A stretch of DNA of 64,000 nucleotides. It comes from Poseidonia sp. GTDB lineage: Archaea > Thermoplasmatota > Poseidoniia > Poseidoniales > Poseidoniaceae. The position numbers and the translations under genes are program-made. The stretch lies in NCBI GenBank assembly GCA_965661285.1, contig CBFIDD010000001.1, positions 1-64,000 on the forward strand, written 5' to 3'. The notes under the pieces were generated by a model. It had not been told where the DNA came from and searched no databases. It was given only the letters and a program-made list of their open reading frames with translations. Shown piece after piece: positions 32,883 through 38,513 of this stretch (position 1 is the stretch's first letter; each line of letters starts with the position of its first letter).

Positions 32883-33359
32883 CTAGCGTTTTCTGAGAGG
32901 TTTTTCGGGAGGCCACGTTCTGAACCCTTTGGTCGAGGTTCGGTCAGCAAAGATGTTGATGCGTATGGTTTGCCCGTCGATGAGGATGGCATCTTCCGCA
33001 TCAATACCAGGACACGTTCGTTTGACGTTTTCCCATGCACCGGGTGTAGCGAGGTTCTCTCCCCACCAAGGAAAGGCTCTGCACTGCTGAGGTCGAACCT
33101 CGTAAATGTTGCACTGTTGTTGTTCGTTGAGATGGATGCAAACGCCGTCTTCCTCGCGACTTTTCAAGACATGTCGGCCATCAAACGTTGTCCGTGTATC
33201 TCGCTCCAACCACGCCGGGACATCCAAGTTTGCATGCGCTGCCAATCGCGACGCATCATCGGGAGAGAGATAGACGATACCGCCGGGTTCGTCGCAGCAT
33301 TTCCCACAATTTGGTTGGCATGAGAAATTGACGCCGTTCATCCACCACGGCGCCCTCAT
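32883..33359 (-). CDS. YkgJ family cysteine-cluster protein
   Basis: CQPNCGKCC, CIHL, CNIYEVRPQQCRAFPWW, CPG. Confidence 0.9.
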   Translation of the reverse strand: MRAPWWMNGVNFSCQPNCGKCCDEPGGIVYLSPDDASRLAAHANLDVPAWLERDTRTTFDGRHVLKSREEDGVCIHLNEQQQCNIYEVRPQQCRAFPWWGENLATPGAWENVKRTCPGIDAEDAILIDGQTIRINIFADRTSTKGFRTWPPEKPLRKR

Positions 33360-35389
33360 TCTTCCTCACCCACCAACACCGTGCGGGGGCGAAGGCGTGC
33401 AAGGCGAATCACCTTCTTGTCTGGCGTTTCGTCGAGAAGGTCGTCCGCTGAGACACCGGTGCCGTCGATGTTCCACTCGCCCTCTGGCTCAAAGGAATCC
33501 AAATGGCCTTCTGTTTCAGGAATCGGTGCCCGCTTTCGGCGGCGAGGTGCTCGTCGTCCTCGTTTTTCCGGGCCGTCTTCTTCGAAGGGCGGCAGGGGTT
33601 TCCTGTCAGGGTCAAGTTCGACCAAGCGCTCTTCCAGAGACCGGAGCGCATCGGCAATGGAGATGAGTTCCTCAATGTCGGCGTCAACGGCACGCTGAGC
33701 AAGCACCACCATCTGCTCCTCCAGCCGCTGAAGTTCCAATGATGCTGCGACACTTTGTGAGGTGGAGGCGTTCATGCGTTGGTCAATGGCCTCGTCAATG
33801 TCCACGAGTACCTCAACCGCTCGCCCGACATCGGTCTCAGGAAGCGGGTCGTTGGCTCGAACGATGTACTTCTCCCGCTCATGGACGTCAAGCACCGAAG
33901 GCCGACCCGGCTCGATGGATTCAACACGTTCACGCAGGCGCTGTTCGAGATCGTGGGTTGATGCTTCCAAAACCTGACTTTCCAGCGTTGGGGGCTCGTA
34001 ATCATCCTCCGGCCACGGCTCGAGGGGGCTGTGCAAATCAATGCCACCGGTGTCAAGCGACGAGTACACGCTGTCCAACGCTTCCCCGACGAGTTGAGAG
34101 GCAAGGTCCTCAACACGTTGTTGCTCTTCAACAGGGGCAGAACTTGACCGGCCCTCGAGAAGGTGTTCGACATCGTCGTGGTCGAGAAGAACCGCTCCCT
34201 GCTCAAAAGCCAACGAGACCTGTTCCAATCTGGCCTCCATCATTCGCCAACTGTGGGGCGGCATCCGACTCAACTGGGCGAGATGTTGGTCGGACAGGAG
34301 CAGGTTACGCTGAGAACACCTCCAGCGTCCGAAAGCCATGAGCGTTGGCGCTTGCGGCGTGGCCAGCGGAGTTACGAGGGCTGAACGGAACACTTCCTTC
34401 AGTCGAGACGGGGGGAATTCCTCAACGGCCAATCGTCCCCCTGCAACGACTTGCACCCCATGGTTGAGGGCTTGGTCAACCAGTACGCCGAGTTGGTGGC
34501 TCCATGTCGTATCGAGAGCAAATTCGTGAAGGTCATCCACCACCAAGGCGGTGGCACCCGGGAGCGCGTGCTGCCACGACGCAGCCAGCCCGTCGGTACC
34601 GGTGGCATCGGCGGCGCTCATGAAGAGAACATGACCCTCTTGGCGTCGGAGCATGGCCTGTCCGGTGGCATGGAGCAAGTGCGAACATCCGGCTTGGGCT
34701 TGGGCGACGATGAGGAGGGGATTGAAATGGTGAGACGGACGGTCGATGACCTGCTCACAATATTGTGTGGCTTGGAGGTTCTCCTCGGCAACAAACCACT
34801 GCTTGAACGTCAACTTGCTGGACCACGACAAACGCCGAGGCCAGTTCGAGGTGATGTCGAGCACACGCGTGGCGTGGAACGCCTCATCCGGTTGCGGGGG
34901 GGCCAACTCCTCACCAAGTTCGTTTCGTACTTCCCCACGTTGTTGGCTCAAGACCTGACTCCAAACCGGAGTCCCATCGTCCCCAACGCCGACGAAAAAG
35001 TCCGATGCATCCGTAGAGGCGGGGGGCGGTTGGGCCGCCTCAAGTCGCTCCTGCAATCGAATCAAGCGCGCAGCCACGTGAGCGGAATAGCCCGTTTCAC
35101 GGTCAAGAAATGAATTCGGCACACCGACGTCAGCACCCAGCACACGGTCAGCGATCAAATCATAGGTCGGGCGCTGCGGTACGCCCACGGATTGAAACAG
35201 CGAGAGAGGGCGCTCAGGGACGGTGTTTTTTCCGAGCAATGTGTTCAGTTTGGACCGAGCTGGTCGTTGGGTTGCCTCCTGTTTGGGAACCGATTCGGAA
35301 CCGGCGCTCTGCCGGGCGTGGATGGACCCTTGCAAACGGCGCTTTGCGTCTTCAAGTTCCGAGCGTAATTTCGTCGGCGGCGACGTCAT
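33356..35389 (-). CDS. DnaA/Hda-like AAA+ domain protein with degenerate Walker A and C-terminal coiled coil
   Basis: TFKQWFVAEENLQA...FNPLLIVAQAQAGCSHLLHATG...LVVDDLH aligns by eye with DnaA domain III. Confidence 0.72.
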   Translation of the reverse strand: MTSPPTKLRSELEDAKRRLQGSIHARQSAGSESVPKQEATQRPARSKLNTLLGKNTVPERPLSLFQSVGVPQRPTYDLIADRVLGADVGVPNSFLDRETGYSAHVAARLIRLQERLEAAQPPPASTDASDFFVGVGDDGTPVWSQVLSQQRGEVRNELGEELAPPQPDEAFHATRVLDITSNWPRRLSWSSKLTFKQWFVAEENLQATQYCEQVIDRPSHHFNPLLIVAQAQAGCSHLLHATGQAMLRRQEGHVLFMSAADATGTDGLAASWQHALPGATALVVDDLHEFALDTTWSHQLGVLVDQALNHGVQVVAGGRLAVEEFPPSRLKEVFRSALVTPLATPQAPTLMAFGRWRCSQRNLLLSDQHLAQLSRMPPHSWRMMEARLEQVSLAFEQGAVLLDHDDVEHLLEGRSSSAPVEEQQRVEDLASQLVGEALDSVYSSLDTGGIDLHSPLEPWPEDDYEPPTLESQVLEASTHDLEQRLRERVESIEPGRPSVLDVHEREKYIVRANDPLPETDVGRAVEVLVDIDEAIDQRMNASTSQSVAASLELQRLEEQMVVLAQRAVDADIEELISIADALRSLEERLVELDPDRKPLPPFEEDGPEKRGRRAPRRRKRAPIPETEGHLDSFEPEGEWNIDGTGVSADDLLDETPDKKVIRLARLRPRTVLVGEEE

Positions 35390-37335
35390 GGCTCTTCACC
35401 GCCATAACGCTTCAACGCCTCCCCTCGTTCGTTGTACAACGCCGTGGCGTCCGCCCCATCGGGCTCATCAAAGGTCGACCATTCGAGGTAGGCTTTCTCA
35501 ACATCAACCTCGGCTTGGGATTTGGCAGCCGCCTCCCTCGAGGGCTTTTCAGCCGTTTCAACAGGACGGAGGCTGCTGGTCAATGGAGCGCTGTCGCCAC
35601 GTGAGGGAAGTTTGACGGTTTTCTTGACCCTCGGCACGGGCAAGGTCGCATCCGAAAGGTCGGGAGAACCCGCCACGCTGTCCTTCAACGCCTTCGCTTC
35701 CACCGGGTAGGCGACCTTCTGATGACGCTCAACAGCCGCCTCTTGCTTCTTGGCAAACCCATCCATGTTTTCTTTGCGAAACGCATGCTTCGCCCGTGGC
35801 TTGACCGGCCAATCCGGCAGTGGAGAGGCGCTCTTGACGACGGCTGAACTTCGGTTGGTGGACAATCCCCGATCAATTTCAGGCATCCTTGGCCGCTGTT
35901 TTCTCGCGGGAAGCCGTTGTGCGGTGCGAAGTTGTGGAGGAGCGGATTTCACCGGCTTCTTTTGTTTGGATTGAAGTGAACGGCGACGAGGAGCGGGTCC
36001 TTCCTCGGCCACCGCTTGTTCGGCTTTCGGAGAATCACTGACATAGCGACCGTAGACAACTTCGGTGTCGATTTCAGGTCGCCAAGCCGTCGAACCGATG
36101 GACACCTCTGTGGCGGACGAGGGTGGTTCGATGGGATGGTACGGGGAGGATTGTTCAGGCCACGCCTCTACCACCTCGCTCAAAGCCTTGGTCGCTTCAT
36201 TTCGCTCCTCGTCATCGGGTACGAAGGCGCCGCCTTCGACCACCTCTCCGTGCAATACAGGGCCGCCGACCTGCGCGCCCTGGTGATGAATTTGTGCCTC
36301 GAGCCACTGCTCTTCTTCCTCGTCTGGAGCGAGGAGCGCGGGATGGTCCCACAGCACATCCGGGTCGTTGACCCAACGATCGATGGTGGACCCTCGCAGC
36401 GAAGTGGATTCGGAAAGAACGGTGTGCTGAACGGTGGTATCAAACAATTCAAGATCGGTGGTTACCAAGGCGATGTGGTCGTTAAATCGAACACCATCAC
36501 AGATGGATCGAAACACATCAACCATGCCTGCCTCACCAAAGGCATTGGCCAAGCGGTCAAGGCCGTCGATGAGGATAACCGAGCGTTCGTTCCCCCACTG
36601 GAATGCATTGACCACGGCTTGAACGGCTTCACGGTCGCTCAACACGTCATATCCGCCATGGGGCGAGAGAAGTGCATAGGATTGAGGGCCTGGCAGACGC
36701 TGCGTCGCTTCAGTCGTTGCGTGTGGCAAGCCAAACAGACCGAGCAGCGGCATGCCGCGCTCAGCCAGTTCAACACCAAGGGAAATCATGGGGTGCGGGT
36801 CGGGAGCGTCGAGCAGGTACACGCCTCCAGGTTCAAGTTGAAGGGCACTCGCTTCGTTGGGGCGTCGGCGACGGTGCTCGGTCTCCAACGCTAAGGCTTC
36901 AATTTCCTCAATTCGAGTCGCACGCCGCCAAGAGGTGGAAGGTAAGCGAACGCTTGACCACCACGACGCAGCGTTGTCGTTGTGCTCTTGATGTTCGAGG
37001 TGAAGGACACTGCCGGGATGGGTGGCCATCGTTGCGCGCAAGGCGTTCATGGACAATTCGTACAACCGCAACTCGTTGTTGACGTCCAAGGCGTCTTCCT
37101 CCATGCAGAGCAGGGCTTCCAAACCTTGTTGCTCAACCTCTCCTCGATGAAAGGCCATGACGGGTTGACCGAGTCGGAACAACAGCCAACCTTCTCTGCT
37201 ATGCTCATGGGAGGCCGAGCGAATGGAGACCGCCCCAGACTGTTCGTGAACGGCAAGGTTTCGAACCAAGACCCGAAGAACATCGACGCCTCCACGCCGC
37301 TGTTCGACCATGTCGCCGTGTTCGATTATGACCAT
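35386..37335 (-). CDS. DUF2226-like N-terminal domain + DUF835 (inactive KaiC/RecA-like) domain + disordered tail
   Basis: GAVSI...EGWLLFRLGQPVMAF at the N-terminus; LEPGGVYLL and SVILIDGLDRL...FRSICD in the middle. Confidence 0.7.
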   Translation of the reverse strand: MVIIEHGDMVEQRRGGVDVLRVLVRNLAVHEQSGAVSIRSASHEHSREGWLLFRLGQPVMAFHRGEVEQQGLEALLCMEEDALDVNNELRLYELSMNALRATMATHPGSVLHLEHQEHNDNAASWWSSVRLPSTSWRRATRIEEIEALALETEHRRRRPNEASALQLEPGGVYLLDAPDPHPMISLGVELAERGMPLLGLFGLPHATTEATQRLPGPQSYALLSPHGGYDVLSDREAVQAVVNAFQWGNERSVILIDGLDRLANAFGEAGMVDVFRSICDGVRFNDHIALVTTDLELFDTTVQHTVLSESTSLRGSTIDRWVNDPDVLWDHPALLAPDEEEEQWLEAQIHHQGAQVGGPVLHGEVVEGGAFVPDDEERNEATKALSEVVEAWPEQSSPYHPIEPPSSATEVSIGSTAWRPEIDTEVVYGRYVSDSPKAEQAVAEEGPAPRRRSLQSKQKKPVKSAPPQLRTAQRLPARKQRPRMPEIDRGLSTNRSSAVVKSASPLPDWPVKPRAKHAFRKENMDGFAKKQEAAVERHQKVAYPVEAKALKDSVAGSPDLSDATLPVPRVKKTVKLPSRGDSAPLTSSLRPVETAEKPSREAAAKSQAEVDVEKAYLEWSTFDEPDGADATALYNERGEALKRYGGEEP

Positions 37336-37438: not shown

Positions 37439-37825
37439 ATGAGCCTGCTGTCGGCCGGACCGTTGAACCTCGACGAGACGCAGTTGCTCGATGAGGGACG
37501 CCAACGGTTTGACTCGGGTCAGTTCTGGCACGCCCACGAGTCGTGGGAGGATTTGTGGAACATGCTCAAAGGGCGACAGGCCCCGCTTGAAGAGATCCTT
37601 CTGGTCCAAGGCCTGATACAAACAGCGGCCATGTTGCTGCACCATGAACGCAAAAACGCGGTCGGTGTCCGAAAACAATGGGAGAAATTGCAGCCAAAAT
37701 TACGCGGTTGGAGGACGGCGTGGGGCCTCGATATTGAGGCGCACCTCAACGTGATTGAAACCTATGCACTGGACGGCGACCTGTGGCGGCTCACAGCCAG
37801 CGACCACCAACTCCCGCAGGCGTGA
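37439..37825 (+). CDS. DUF309 domain protein
   Basis: FDSGQFWHAHESWEDLW, VQGLIQ. Alternative start at 37421. Confidence 0.88.
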   Translation: MSLLSAGPLNLDETQLLDEGRQRFDSGQFWHAHESWEDLWNMLKGRQAPLEEILLVQGLIQTAAMLLHHERKNAVGVRKQWEKLQPKLRGWRTAWGLDIEAHLNVIETYALDGDLWRLTASDHQLPQA

Positions 37826-37856
37826 GGTTCAAAGTCGGCGGCGATTGGTTACCCAC

Positions 37857-38513
37857 ATGGTCGATGACGCCTCGGTGCTTCCCGCCGACATGCTCCGGTT
37901 CATCGACACCCCTGTTGCGCAACCGCTCGTCAGGGGACGGAACATCGCCTTCGGGGGCAGCATCGTGCTGGCCATCGTGCTCTTCCTTTTGATGCGTCAA
38001 TTTGCCTTCTCTTCACTCCTCTCGGCCAGCCTTGCCGCCCTGACCCTCCTCATGAATGCGGTCGTCGTTTGGCTCCGATTCCAAAGCCACGCCTCTACCC
38101 CGCTTGCGGTGAACCTGAACCATCCGTTCATGGACACGGAGCCGATGGGCGATGCTCGCCTGCTCGTCCAATTGACCGACGGACGCTGGATTGCACCCGG
38201 TGAGCACCGGGTTCGTGCAGTACCCGACGACCTTCTTGGAGGCTTCACACTCGTCCTGGACACCGAGGATTACCCCGCTTTGGGTCATTTTTCAAACGCA
38301 AAAGAACTCGGGGGCACCCTTACCCGTCATTTGGCGCTCATCAACCAAGCGATTGCGCTGAGGGACGCTGTGAACGAAGTGCATGACCCCATTGAGGATG
38401 CACGGAGTCGAGAGAAGATGGATACGGGCTTGCTGGAACGGTCGTGGCTTGAGGACGAAGAAGCCGTTGAGGTCGAAAGTCCCCTCGTGTCGTTTTTTAG
38501 GGGCAAGGAATGA
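37857..38513 (+). CDS. Hypothetical membrane protein
   Basis: Two TMs and a soluble C-terminal region; GGTTCAAA box about 25 nt upstream. Confidence 0.7.
   Translation: MVDDASVLPADMLRFIDTPVAQPLVRGRNIAFGGSIVLAIVLFLLMRQFAFSSLLSASLAALTLLMNAVVVWLRFQSHASTPLAVNLNHPFMDTEPMGDARLLVQLTDGRWIAPGEHRVRAVPDDLLGGFTLVLDTEDYPALGHFSNAKELGGTLTRHLALINQAIALRDAVNEVHDPIEDARSREKMDTGLLERSWLEDEEAVEVESPLVSFFRGKE

Follow-up and report, generated by a model that had tools for sequence, protein, structure and literature searches.

The DNA analysed here, referred to as the window, is a stretch of 64,000 nucleotides (nt) from Poseidonia sp., a member of the archaeal order Poseidoniales (assembly GCA_965661285.1, contig CBFIDD010000001.1, positions 1 to 64,000), and it carries three consecutive genes on the reverse strand, here called genes 1, 2 and 3. 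Gene 1 appears to combine an N-terminal domain with a RecA/KaiC-like domain of the DUF835 type that has no P-loop, gene 2 encodes an AAA+ protein of the DnaA type, and gene 3 encodes a cysteine-cluster protein of the YkgJ type. We consider it probable, if far from certain, that genes 1 and 2 specify a non-replicative AAA+/inactive-KaiC regulatory or scaffold assembly that was split from a single-chain protein. Full-text literature searches returned no description of such a DnaA-like/DUF835 module, which may nevertheless be mentioned in Makarova et al. (2017).

Genes 1 and 2 share a 4-nt ATGA stop/start overlap (35386-35389) and a second overlap of this kind joins gene 2 to gene 3 (33356-33359), just as an earlier note, made from the letters of the sequence, had described the three open reading frames (ORFs); GC content is even across the region. 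The order was sampled with 151 genomes from 22 genera, the window's own genome (G000) included. The gene 1 profile matches 96 of these genomes and the gene 2 profile 98, both in the same 15 genera, so that 53 to 55 of the 151 genomes do not carry the pair. In 94 of the 96 genomes with both, the two genes share a contig and a strand, gene 1 preceding gene 2; in the remaining two they are split over short contigs. This count omits the 15 lowest rows of the gene 2 search, which are second pieces of genomes already counted. Among 17 loci chosen for comparison, covering the 15 genera with the pair, the 4-nt overlap between genes 1 and 2 is kept in 10, at 23-33% identity. That a DUF835/KaiC-like protein without a P-loop is paired with a DnaA-like AAA+ protein, as the earlier note had proposed, is thus confirmed, and the pairing is conserved and translationally coupled.

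The DnaA-like AAA+ domain of gene 2 is recognized by Bac_DnaA (PF00308) with 35.9 bits against a cut-off of 23, over amino acids (aa) 192-316. The DnaA model TIGR00362 (E 2.1e-15, 56.7 bits) and the Hda model TIGR03420 (E 3.3e-9, 36.6 bits) match as well, without reaching their equivalog cut-offs of 343.9 and 194.8 bits, and the only PDB relatives found by sequence are Bacillus subtilis DnaA chains (8btg, E 5.9e-6). Homologs number 104 and, where the organism is named, are assigned to Poseidoniales/Poseidonia, Euryarchaeota or "archaeon," labels that, together with those of the gene 1 homologs, identify the source as a Marine Group II archaeon. Outside aa 192-316 no Pfam family is found in gene 2, hence no match to DnaA domain I or IV. 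The flanks, about 180 aa on the N-terminal and 280 aa on the C-terminal side, carry short conserved motifs, and an Atlas search with aa 400-677 gave no usable match. The coiled coil once suggested for this protein corresponds to a heptad-like helix (about aa 550-593) that is conserved in the alignment of gene 2 orthologs (A2) and may form a short coiled coil, according to a crude script that scores a/d positions. Many of the 17 loci share a C-terminal pattern of the hydrophobic-Pro-hydrophobic kind that closes with acidic residues; no PCNA PIP-box was seen when the tails were searched by eye.

Given that the closest solved and curated relatives of gene 2 are DnaA domain III and Hda, and that gene 2, like Hda, is without domains I and IV, the pair could be seen as a replication regulator analogous to bacterial DnaA or Hda. 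However, Bac_DnaA_C (PF08299) finds no match in the whole genome at E ≤ 1, in a search whose control was positive in 12 of 14 known genomes, and the genome carries two Orc1/Cdc6 genes, so that gene 2 is not a replication initiator, a reading that was rejected. The distance to both equivalog cut-offs, the lost P-loop in the window's genus and the deletion of the pair in a whole clade of free-living relatives likewise speak against it, and we regard a role in replication control as extremely improbable.

The ATP-binding site of gene 2 shows decay. The pattern [AG]x4GK[ST] occurs nowhere in the window protein, and alignment with 8btg reveals that Walker B DD is kept, while sensor-1 SSD has become GGR and the second Arg of box VII RLRSRF has become Val. 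In DnaA this second Arg is the arginine finger. A motif table was drawn up by profile alignment of 18 Poseidoniales sequences (17 orthologs and the window) and 10 sequences from outside the order, all 10 of which have the GxxGxGKT Walker A. At the Walker A Lys position, the 17 orthologs from other Poseidoniales genomes show Lys in 10, Arg in 4 and Gly in 1; L001, one of the compared loci, has Cys, as does the window. The column of the second box VII Arg holds Arg or Lys in 0 of the 18 Poseidoniales sequences, as opposed to 9 Arg and 1 Lys in the 10 others. Judged from these motifs, loss of the P-loop is specific to some genera, and the phrase "two pseudo-ATPases" with which the locus had been introduced fits the window's genus but not the gene 2 family, since 10 of the 17 orthologs keep the Walker A Lys.

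The case for gene 1 is built on relatives and fold. Its homologs number 81, with the same organism labels as those of gene 2 where any is named. The whole protein reaches the cut-off of no Pfam family, and scans of the protein in pieces gave as sole matches DUF4388 at E 0.089 and DUF835 at E 0.026. Against DUF835 (PF05763) the window copy scores 14.8-15.1 bits, below the cut-off of 33.1. Four of the 16 gene 1 orthologs in alignment A1 match DUF835 at E ≤ 0.01 (best E 2.1e-5), and when a gene 1 family profile was run against 1.84 billion representative proteins, giving 111 matches, DUF835 was found above cut-off, at the place aligned to gene 1, in 25 of the 26 distant relatives scanned. The AlphaFold2 (AF2) model of gene 1 is confident for aa 1-110 and aa 165-330 and low elsewhere; the latter segment (predicted local distance difference test, pLDDT, 83-91) resembles RecA (1u94), KaiC-CI (6x61), PH0284 (2dr3) and RadA in Foldseek with probability 0.99-1.0, at E 5e-4 to 3e-3 and a target-normalized template modelling (TM) score of 0.3-0.4. 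A sequence search of the PDB with the gene 1 profile gave no match at E ≤ 1. Walker A is absent from the window copy, from all 16 members of A1 and from all 17 locus orthologs; an invariant DxPDPHP column occupies its place, and LPHAxT, DGLDR and TTDL are invariant as well. Taken together, the relatives and the predicted fold argue that gene 1 carries a RecA/KaiC-like DUF835-type domain without a P-loop. The earlier assignment to DUF835 without Walker A therefore stands on this basis, the window copy itself falling short of the Pfam threshold.

A second DUF835-like ORF of 288 aa (26.1 bits, below cut-off) was noticed in the window's genome (G000 contig C2, L036:5179-6045, forward strand), divergent from a gene for a 619-aa protein with a double zinc ribbon and several EF-hands.

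The N-terminal domain of gene 1 had been called DUF2226/PatA-N-like, and of this a weak resemblance is left. Modelled alone it folds confidently (AF2 pLDDT 92.8), and a search of solved structures gave no convincing relative (best Foldseek E 0.04, best VIA Z 5.2). Its score against DUF4388/PatA_N (PF14332) is 13.3-13.6 bits, below the cut-off of 25; six-frame searches of the genome found no match to PatA_N at E ≤ 10 and none to DUF2226 (PF09987), and DUF2226 is above cut-off in 0 of 301 Thermoplasmatota genomes. Only the N-domain of L023, a distant relative, reaches the DUF2226 cut-off (23.6 vs. 22 bits, profile positions 1-79 of 252). Two Atlas leads scored 0.83 and 0.80, both below 0.9. A search for proteins of near-domain length with the N-domain profile returned 23 matches of 73-190 aa, many on contigs of about 1-3 kb and none with a Pfam family, which we take to be fragments. 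Sub-threshold matches and the L023 domain hence hint at a PATAN/DUF2226 relationship, which the window protein supports at no cut-off. The tail is disordered, basic and Pro-rich and ends in a short motif, in agreement with the earlier description: pLDDT is mostly below 50, aa 396-620 have an isoelectric point of 9.9 and 26 Pro, and the C-terminal motif is conserved within the window's own genus only.

A hint at a joint role comes from outside the order. Two gene 1 profile matches, P0265 (Bac_DnaA 3e-60, DUF835 4e-28) and P0279 (Bac_DnaA 1.5e-51, DUF835 1e-25), hold a strong Bac_DnaA and a C-terminal DUF835 in one chain; P0279 also matches the gene 1 N-domain, and its relatives are found in metagenome-assembled genomes labelled Thermoplasmata and Methanobacteriota. 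DnaA-type AAA+ matches occur in 91 of the 301 Thermoplasmatota genomes sampled, and outside the order it is the AAA+ core alone that matches. Fifteen DnaA-like ORFs from outside the order were scanned (14 picked by hand from the matches in the phylum sample, and L018): seven are Bac_DnaA-DUF835 fusions, four are short DnaA-only proteins, two carry zinc ribbons, one is fused to a T2SSE pilus ATPase, and one (L028) has a 7TM-DUF835 gene two genes downstream, in the order DnaA-like, KaiC, 7TM-DUF835. The N-domain profile of gene 1 recognizes the N-domains of the fusions L018 (E 6e-7), L019 (3e-4) and L023 (1e-2); among the matches listed it gave none for L022, L025, L026, L030 and L031. Since other Thermoplasmatota encode these domains as a single fused protein, genes 1 and 2 are functionally linked. 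A Rad51/KaiC-like ATPase gene lies directly 3′ of the fusion gene in L025 and L030, and zinc-ribbon and tetratricopeptide repeat (TPR) proteins are also among the neighbours of DnaA-like genes outside the order; together with the Ras/Roc neighbours described next, the KaiC/Rad51-like ones count as support for a KaiC-type signalling context.

Several further neighbours of these outside genes were recorded. In L022:2553-5174 (reverse strand), the DnaA-DUF835 fusion gene is preceded by a GNAT acetyltransferase gene, and immediately after it come two genes for small GTPases of the Ras/Roc family and a 148-aa ORF that matches no family; GNAT genes also adjoin the DnaA-like genes of L029 and L031. 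Large TPR-repeat proteins adjoin the DnaA-like genes in L026:7077-9104, L029:370-2736 and L031:8989-11280, with zinc ribbons and HhH in the L026 protein and NB-ARC in that of L029. Gene 2 itself ends in an acidic GEEE tail, and it might be speculated that TPR domains read such tails.

The distribution of the pair within Poseidoniales suggests a simple history. A RpoB tree was built for 35 genomes, picked by hand from 146 with a match so that each genus had one or two representatives, and it places the seven pair-less genera in one clade (Shimodaira-Hasegawa-like approximate likelihood ratio test, SH-aLRT, 100), and one loss therefore explains the gap. Across the 17 loci a syntenic block runs from a KBL-type aminotransferase through the 265-aa gene, the 252-aa gene, DUF309, genes 1-3, citrate synthase and GDPD to PAP2, and this fixed position on the chromosome is where the pair sits in every sampled genome of one family and in some of a second. 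In five of five genomes of the pair-less clade, citrate synthase adjoins DUF309, the 265-aa gene or KBL, and genes 1, 2 and 3 and the 252-aa gene are gone from that locus. The pair is thus ancestral to the order, and a single deletion removed it, along with gene 3, from a streamlined clade.

This distribution bears directly on the archaellum. The earlier note had inferred a scaffold serving polarity, division or control of the archaellum, and in the window's family the pair and archaellin do occur together in all sampled genomes, or nearly so; the Ras/Roc small GTPases beside the L022 fusion gene would also fit a polarity-type module. In the whole order sample, however, archaellin (PF01917) is found in 95 of the 151 genomes, and in five genera its occurrence disagrees with that of the pair: searches of the pair-bearing genera g10 (0/2), g11 (0/3) and g19 (0/6) did not find it, and it is present in the pair-less genera g17 (8/9) and g22 (3/3). 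The archaellum link was rejected on this mismatch, and the proposal as a whole, polarity and division included, strikes us as very unlikely. The pair is neither a replication initiator nor an archaellum-specific factor.

Gene 3 is confidently a CxxCxxCC protein of the YkgJ type, as first described: it scores 47.7 bits against PF03692 (cut-off 23) and has eight Cys (14, 18, 21, 22, 74, 83, 93, and 116), arranged as Cx3Cx2CC and four more. Its membership in the operon holds in part. It adjoins the pair in all 17 loci, sharing its strand in nine and lying on the opposite one in eight, so that it is a faithful neighbour that was deleted along with the pair, and not a constant member of the operon. 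These facts can be read as a redox- or metal-sensing unit, in which sensing would fall to the Cys-cluster protein of gene 3, whose state would be passed on by genes 1 and 2. Constant adjacency, the ATGA coupling to gene 2 in the window's genome and the finding that genes 1-3 are all gone between DUF309 or the 265-aa gene (unk265) and citrate synthase in the five pair-less genomes, in which this query found gene 3 nowhere else, are in keeping with such a unit. On the other side, gene 3 has the opposite orientation in 8 of 17 loci, the co-deletion is a single event in a single clade, and a CxxCxxCC gene stands beside the DnaA-like gene in 0 of 14 other Thermoplasmatota loci whose neighbours were scanned (matches at E ≤ 1e-5). 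A sensing unit of this kind is accordingly rated as quite improbable.

Another alternative places a type IV pilus-like (Tad-like) surface machine under the control of the pair: by docking on the assembly ATPase or platform, the N-domain or the AAA+ module would determine when or where pili are built. In another Thermoplasmatota genome (L024:5929-8370, forward strand), a T2SSE pilus ATPase carries a DnaA-type AAA+ domain as an N-terminal fusion; the gene is part of a complete operon that also encodes a 957-aa archaeal type IV pilin, DUF7289 and two T2SSF proteins, and a gene with a receiver domain lies close by. A Tad-like operon is also present in the window's genome (G000 contig C3, L035:5327-7904, reverse strand), with a 418-aa T2SSE, two T2SSF and small ORFs without a Pfam family, and high-identity orthologs of its ATPase (E ≤ 1e-149) occur in 98 of the 151 genomes, spread over the very 15 of the 22 genera that have the pair. 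In Synechocystis, PATAN domains bind PilB1 and PilC (10.1101/2021.06.11.447907). However, the RpoB tree reduces this co-distribution to a single loss in a genome-streamlined clade, a pattern that could be common to hundreds of genes, and it was dropped as strong evidence. Moreover, no match to the pair was found in one genome (G061, 90% complete) that has the ATPase ortholog, the Tad-like operon sits on another contig than the pair, and the PATAN assignment of gene 1 is weak. We treat the Tad-like pilus link as a lead only, and as an unlikely one.

We therefore return to the AAA+/inactive-KaiC assembly. Its ancestor would have been a single chain of the form "N-domain - DnaA-type AAA+ - DUF835 (inactive KaiC)," as found in other Thermoplasmatota today, and splitting of this chain would have left genes 1 and 2 as the two halves of one cytoplasmic assembly. 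In the ancestral form the AAA+ module would bind ATP and act as a switch or oligomerization engine, and the DUF835 and N-domains would serve as protein-binding adaptors from the KaiC-type signalling repertoire of archaea. Throughout Poseidoniales the residue that aligns to the second box VII Arg has been lost, and in the window's genus the P-loop too, so that here the pair would most likely be a nucleotide-independent scaffold whose long disordered tails and terminal motifs may recruit partners. The coupled scaffold or signalling unit of the earlier note is a reasonable idea in this form, once the archaellum link, the uniform pseudo-ATPase label and the fixed membership of YkgJ are corrected.

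Several points weigh against this assembly. The window's gene 1 falls below the Pfam cut-off for every domain named in it. The 10-gene block from KBL to PAP2 is syntenic across the order, which makes the adjacency of genes 1 and 2 partly uninformative. The invariant Asp, His, Thr and Arg of the DUF835-type domain could form a ligand or metal site, or have a catalytic role, in place of a passive scaffold. Among the immediate neighbours of the pair, in the window as in the 17 Poseidoniales loci, there is no active KaiC gene. Finally, physical binding of the two products, the switch or scaffold mechanism and all that is said here about targets are things we infer; complex prediction with gene 1 aa 1-345 and gene 2 aa 175-480 scored 0.00, which is evidence neither for nor against.

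Table 1. Features of the locus, with positions counted from the first nucleotide of the window.
Feature	Position	Strand	Description
Gene 1	35386..37335	-	649-aa ORF: N-domain, putative DUF835-type inactive KaiC/RecA-like domain, long disordered tail
Gene 1 N-domain	37000..37335	-	aa 1-112, beta-alpha-beta4-alpha-beta-alpha; weakly PATAN/DUF2226-like
Gene 1 DUF835-type RecA/KaiC-like domain (predicted)	36331..36840	-	aa 166-335; from relatives, fold and motifs
DAPDPHP in the place of the P-loop, gene 1	36790-36810	-	conserved; invariant DxPDPHP column in A1
Walker-B-like DGLDRL, gene 1	36550-36567	-	from alignment A1
Gene 1 tail	35389..36330	-	aa 336-649: acidic helical stretch, then basic Pro-rich region of low confidence
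Gene 1 C-terminal motif TALYNERGEALKRY	35404-35445	-	kept in A1 and L001, not in other genera
Gene 2	33356..35389	-	677-aa ORF: conserved N-region, DnaA-type AAA+, acidic middle, heptad-like helix, tail with C-terminal motif
Gene 2 AAA+ module (DnaA domain III with lid)	34196..34837	-	aa 185-398; PF00308, TIGR00362, 8btg alignment
Degenerate Walker A AQAQAGCS, gene 2	34682-34705	-	GGVGLGKT in 8btg
Walker B VVDD, gene 2	34532-34543	-	8btg alignment, motif table
Box VII SRLKEVF, gene 2	34388-34408	-	8btg alignment, motif table
Sensor-2-like SWRMME, gene 2	34235-34252	-	8btg alignment, motif table
Gene 2 heptad-like helix	33611..33745	-	about aa 549-593; possible short coiled coil, crude a/d-position script only
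Gene 2 C-terminal motif LARLRPRTVLVGEEE	33359..33403	-	alignment A2, locus comparison
Gene 3	32883..33359	-	158-aa ORF: CxxCxxCC/YkgJ-type Cys-cluster protein
Divergent row DUF309 / 252-aa / 265-aa	37310..39180	+	upstream of gene 1; context only

Upstream of gene 1, the DUF309 ORF on the forward strand, called from its first start, overlaps the start of gene 1 by 26 nt (37310-37335); the ORF may in fact begin at a later start, in which case the promoter region between the two divergent genes would be very short. The 252-aa ORF (37755-38513, forward strand) resembles by eye a two-helix membrane protein. It is this gene that is missing from the locus in five of five genomes without the pair, and in L072 and L073 the DUF309 gene and the 265-aa gene both remain on either side of the gap, which implies a separate deletion of the 252-aa ORF.

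The Poseidoniales rank with the most abundant archaea in surface seawater, and no member of the order is known to be in culture. In the pair described here, a DnaA-type AAA+ module, normally the bacterial replication initiator, is reused in archaea without its DNA-binding parts, and the pair catches such a module at a stage where its nucleotide site is being lost over a series of dated lineages. The transition from an AAA+ switch to a pure scaffold thereby becomes testable, as do the binding partners of the DUF835 "inactive KaiC" domains. A bolder scenario joins these threads: a bacterial-type DnaA engine captured early in Thermoplasmatota, together with a dead KaiC and a PATAN-like domain, would constitute an archaeal switch controlling Tad-like pili, which in Marine Group II would have been split and be losing its nucleotide dependence, becoming a tail-mediated scaffold that governs particle attachment, possibly tethered to the membrane through the co-lost 252-aa protein and read out via the YkgJ protein. 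We judge this scenario distinctly unlikely; if the pilus lead were true, it would become testable how Poseidoniales control surface attachment.

Compared with known systems, gene 2 stands closest to DnaA and Hda. Its aa 176-389 align to the AAA+ module of B. subtilis DnaA, lid included, and the two share NPL before the P-loop, the HLLHA helix, the Walker B DD and a sensor-2-like Arg. Unlike DnaA, gene 2 is archaeal, and in place of the Walker A GxxGxGKT it reads AQAQAGCS, next to the changes in sensor 1 and box VII given above; unlike Hda, which consists of the AAA+ module with a short N-terminus, gene 2 runs to 677 aa and bears a long flank at either end of the module. The N-domain of gene 1 is similar in length to PATAN/PatA_N (PF14332) of the cyanobacterial PatA-type regulators and to archaeal DUF2226 (PF09987), and the likeness in sequence pattern was judged by eye and is not the result of a tool; unlike PatA-type regulators, gene 1 is without a receiver domain. 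DUF835 (PF05763) has been termed an inactivated KaiC ("iKaiC") by Galperin et al. (2018), who cite Makarova et al. (2017), and is a RecA/KaiC-like archaeal signalling module without a P-loop that also occurs as REC-DUF835, and the available part of that source makes no mention of a pairing with DnaA (PMC5847659). The gene 1 domain probably has the same P-loop-less fold, and another instance of the module is the 7TM-DUF835 protein of L028. However, the Poseidoniales copy has diverged below the Pfam cut-off and has invariant motifs of its own, and it is joined to a PATAN-like N-domain and a disordered tail of 310 aa and is paired with a gene for a DnaA-type AAA+ protein. Further counterparts are the fusion proteins (P0265, P0279, L018, L019, L022, L023, L025, L026, L030, and L031), which are built from the same three domain families. 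They differ in that their order is N-domain, AAA+, DUF835, whereas in the split pair the N-domain and DUF835 share gene 1; the six fusions that were aligned keep the Walker A GxxGxGKT that gene 2 of the window has lost, and box VII is intact in most. Their neighbours, unlike those of the pair, are a KaiC/Rad51-like ATPase, Ras/Roc GTPases, GNAT, zinc-ribbon and TPR proteins.

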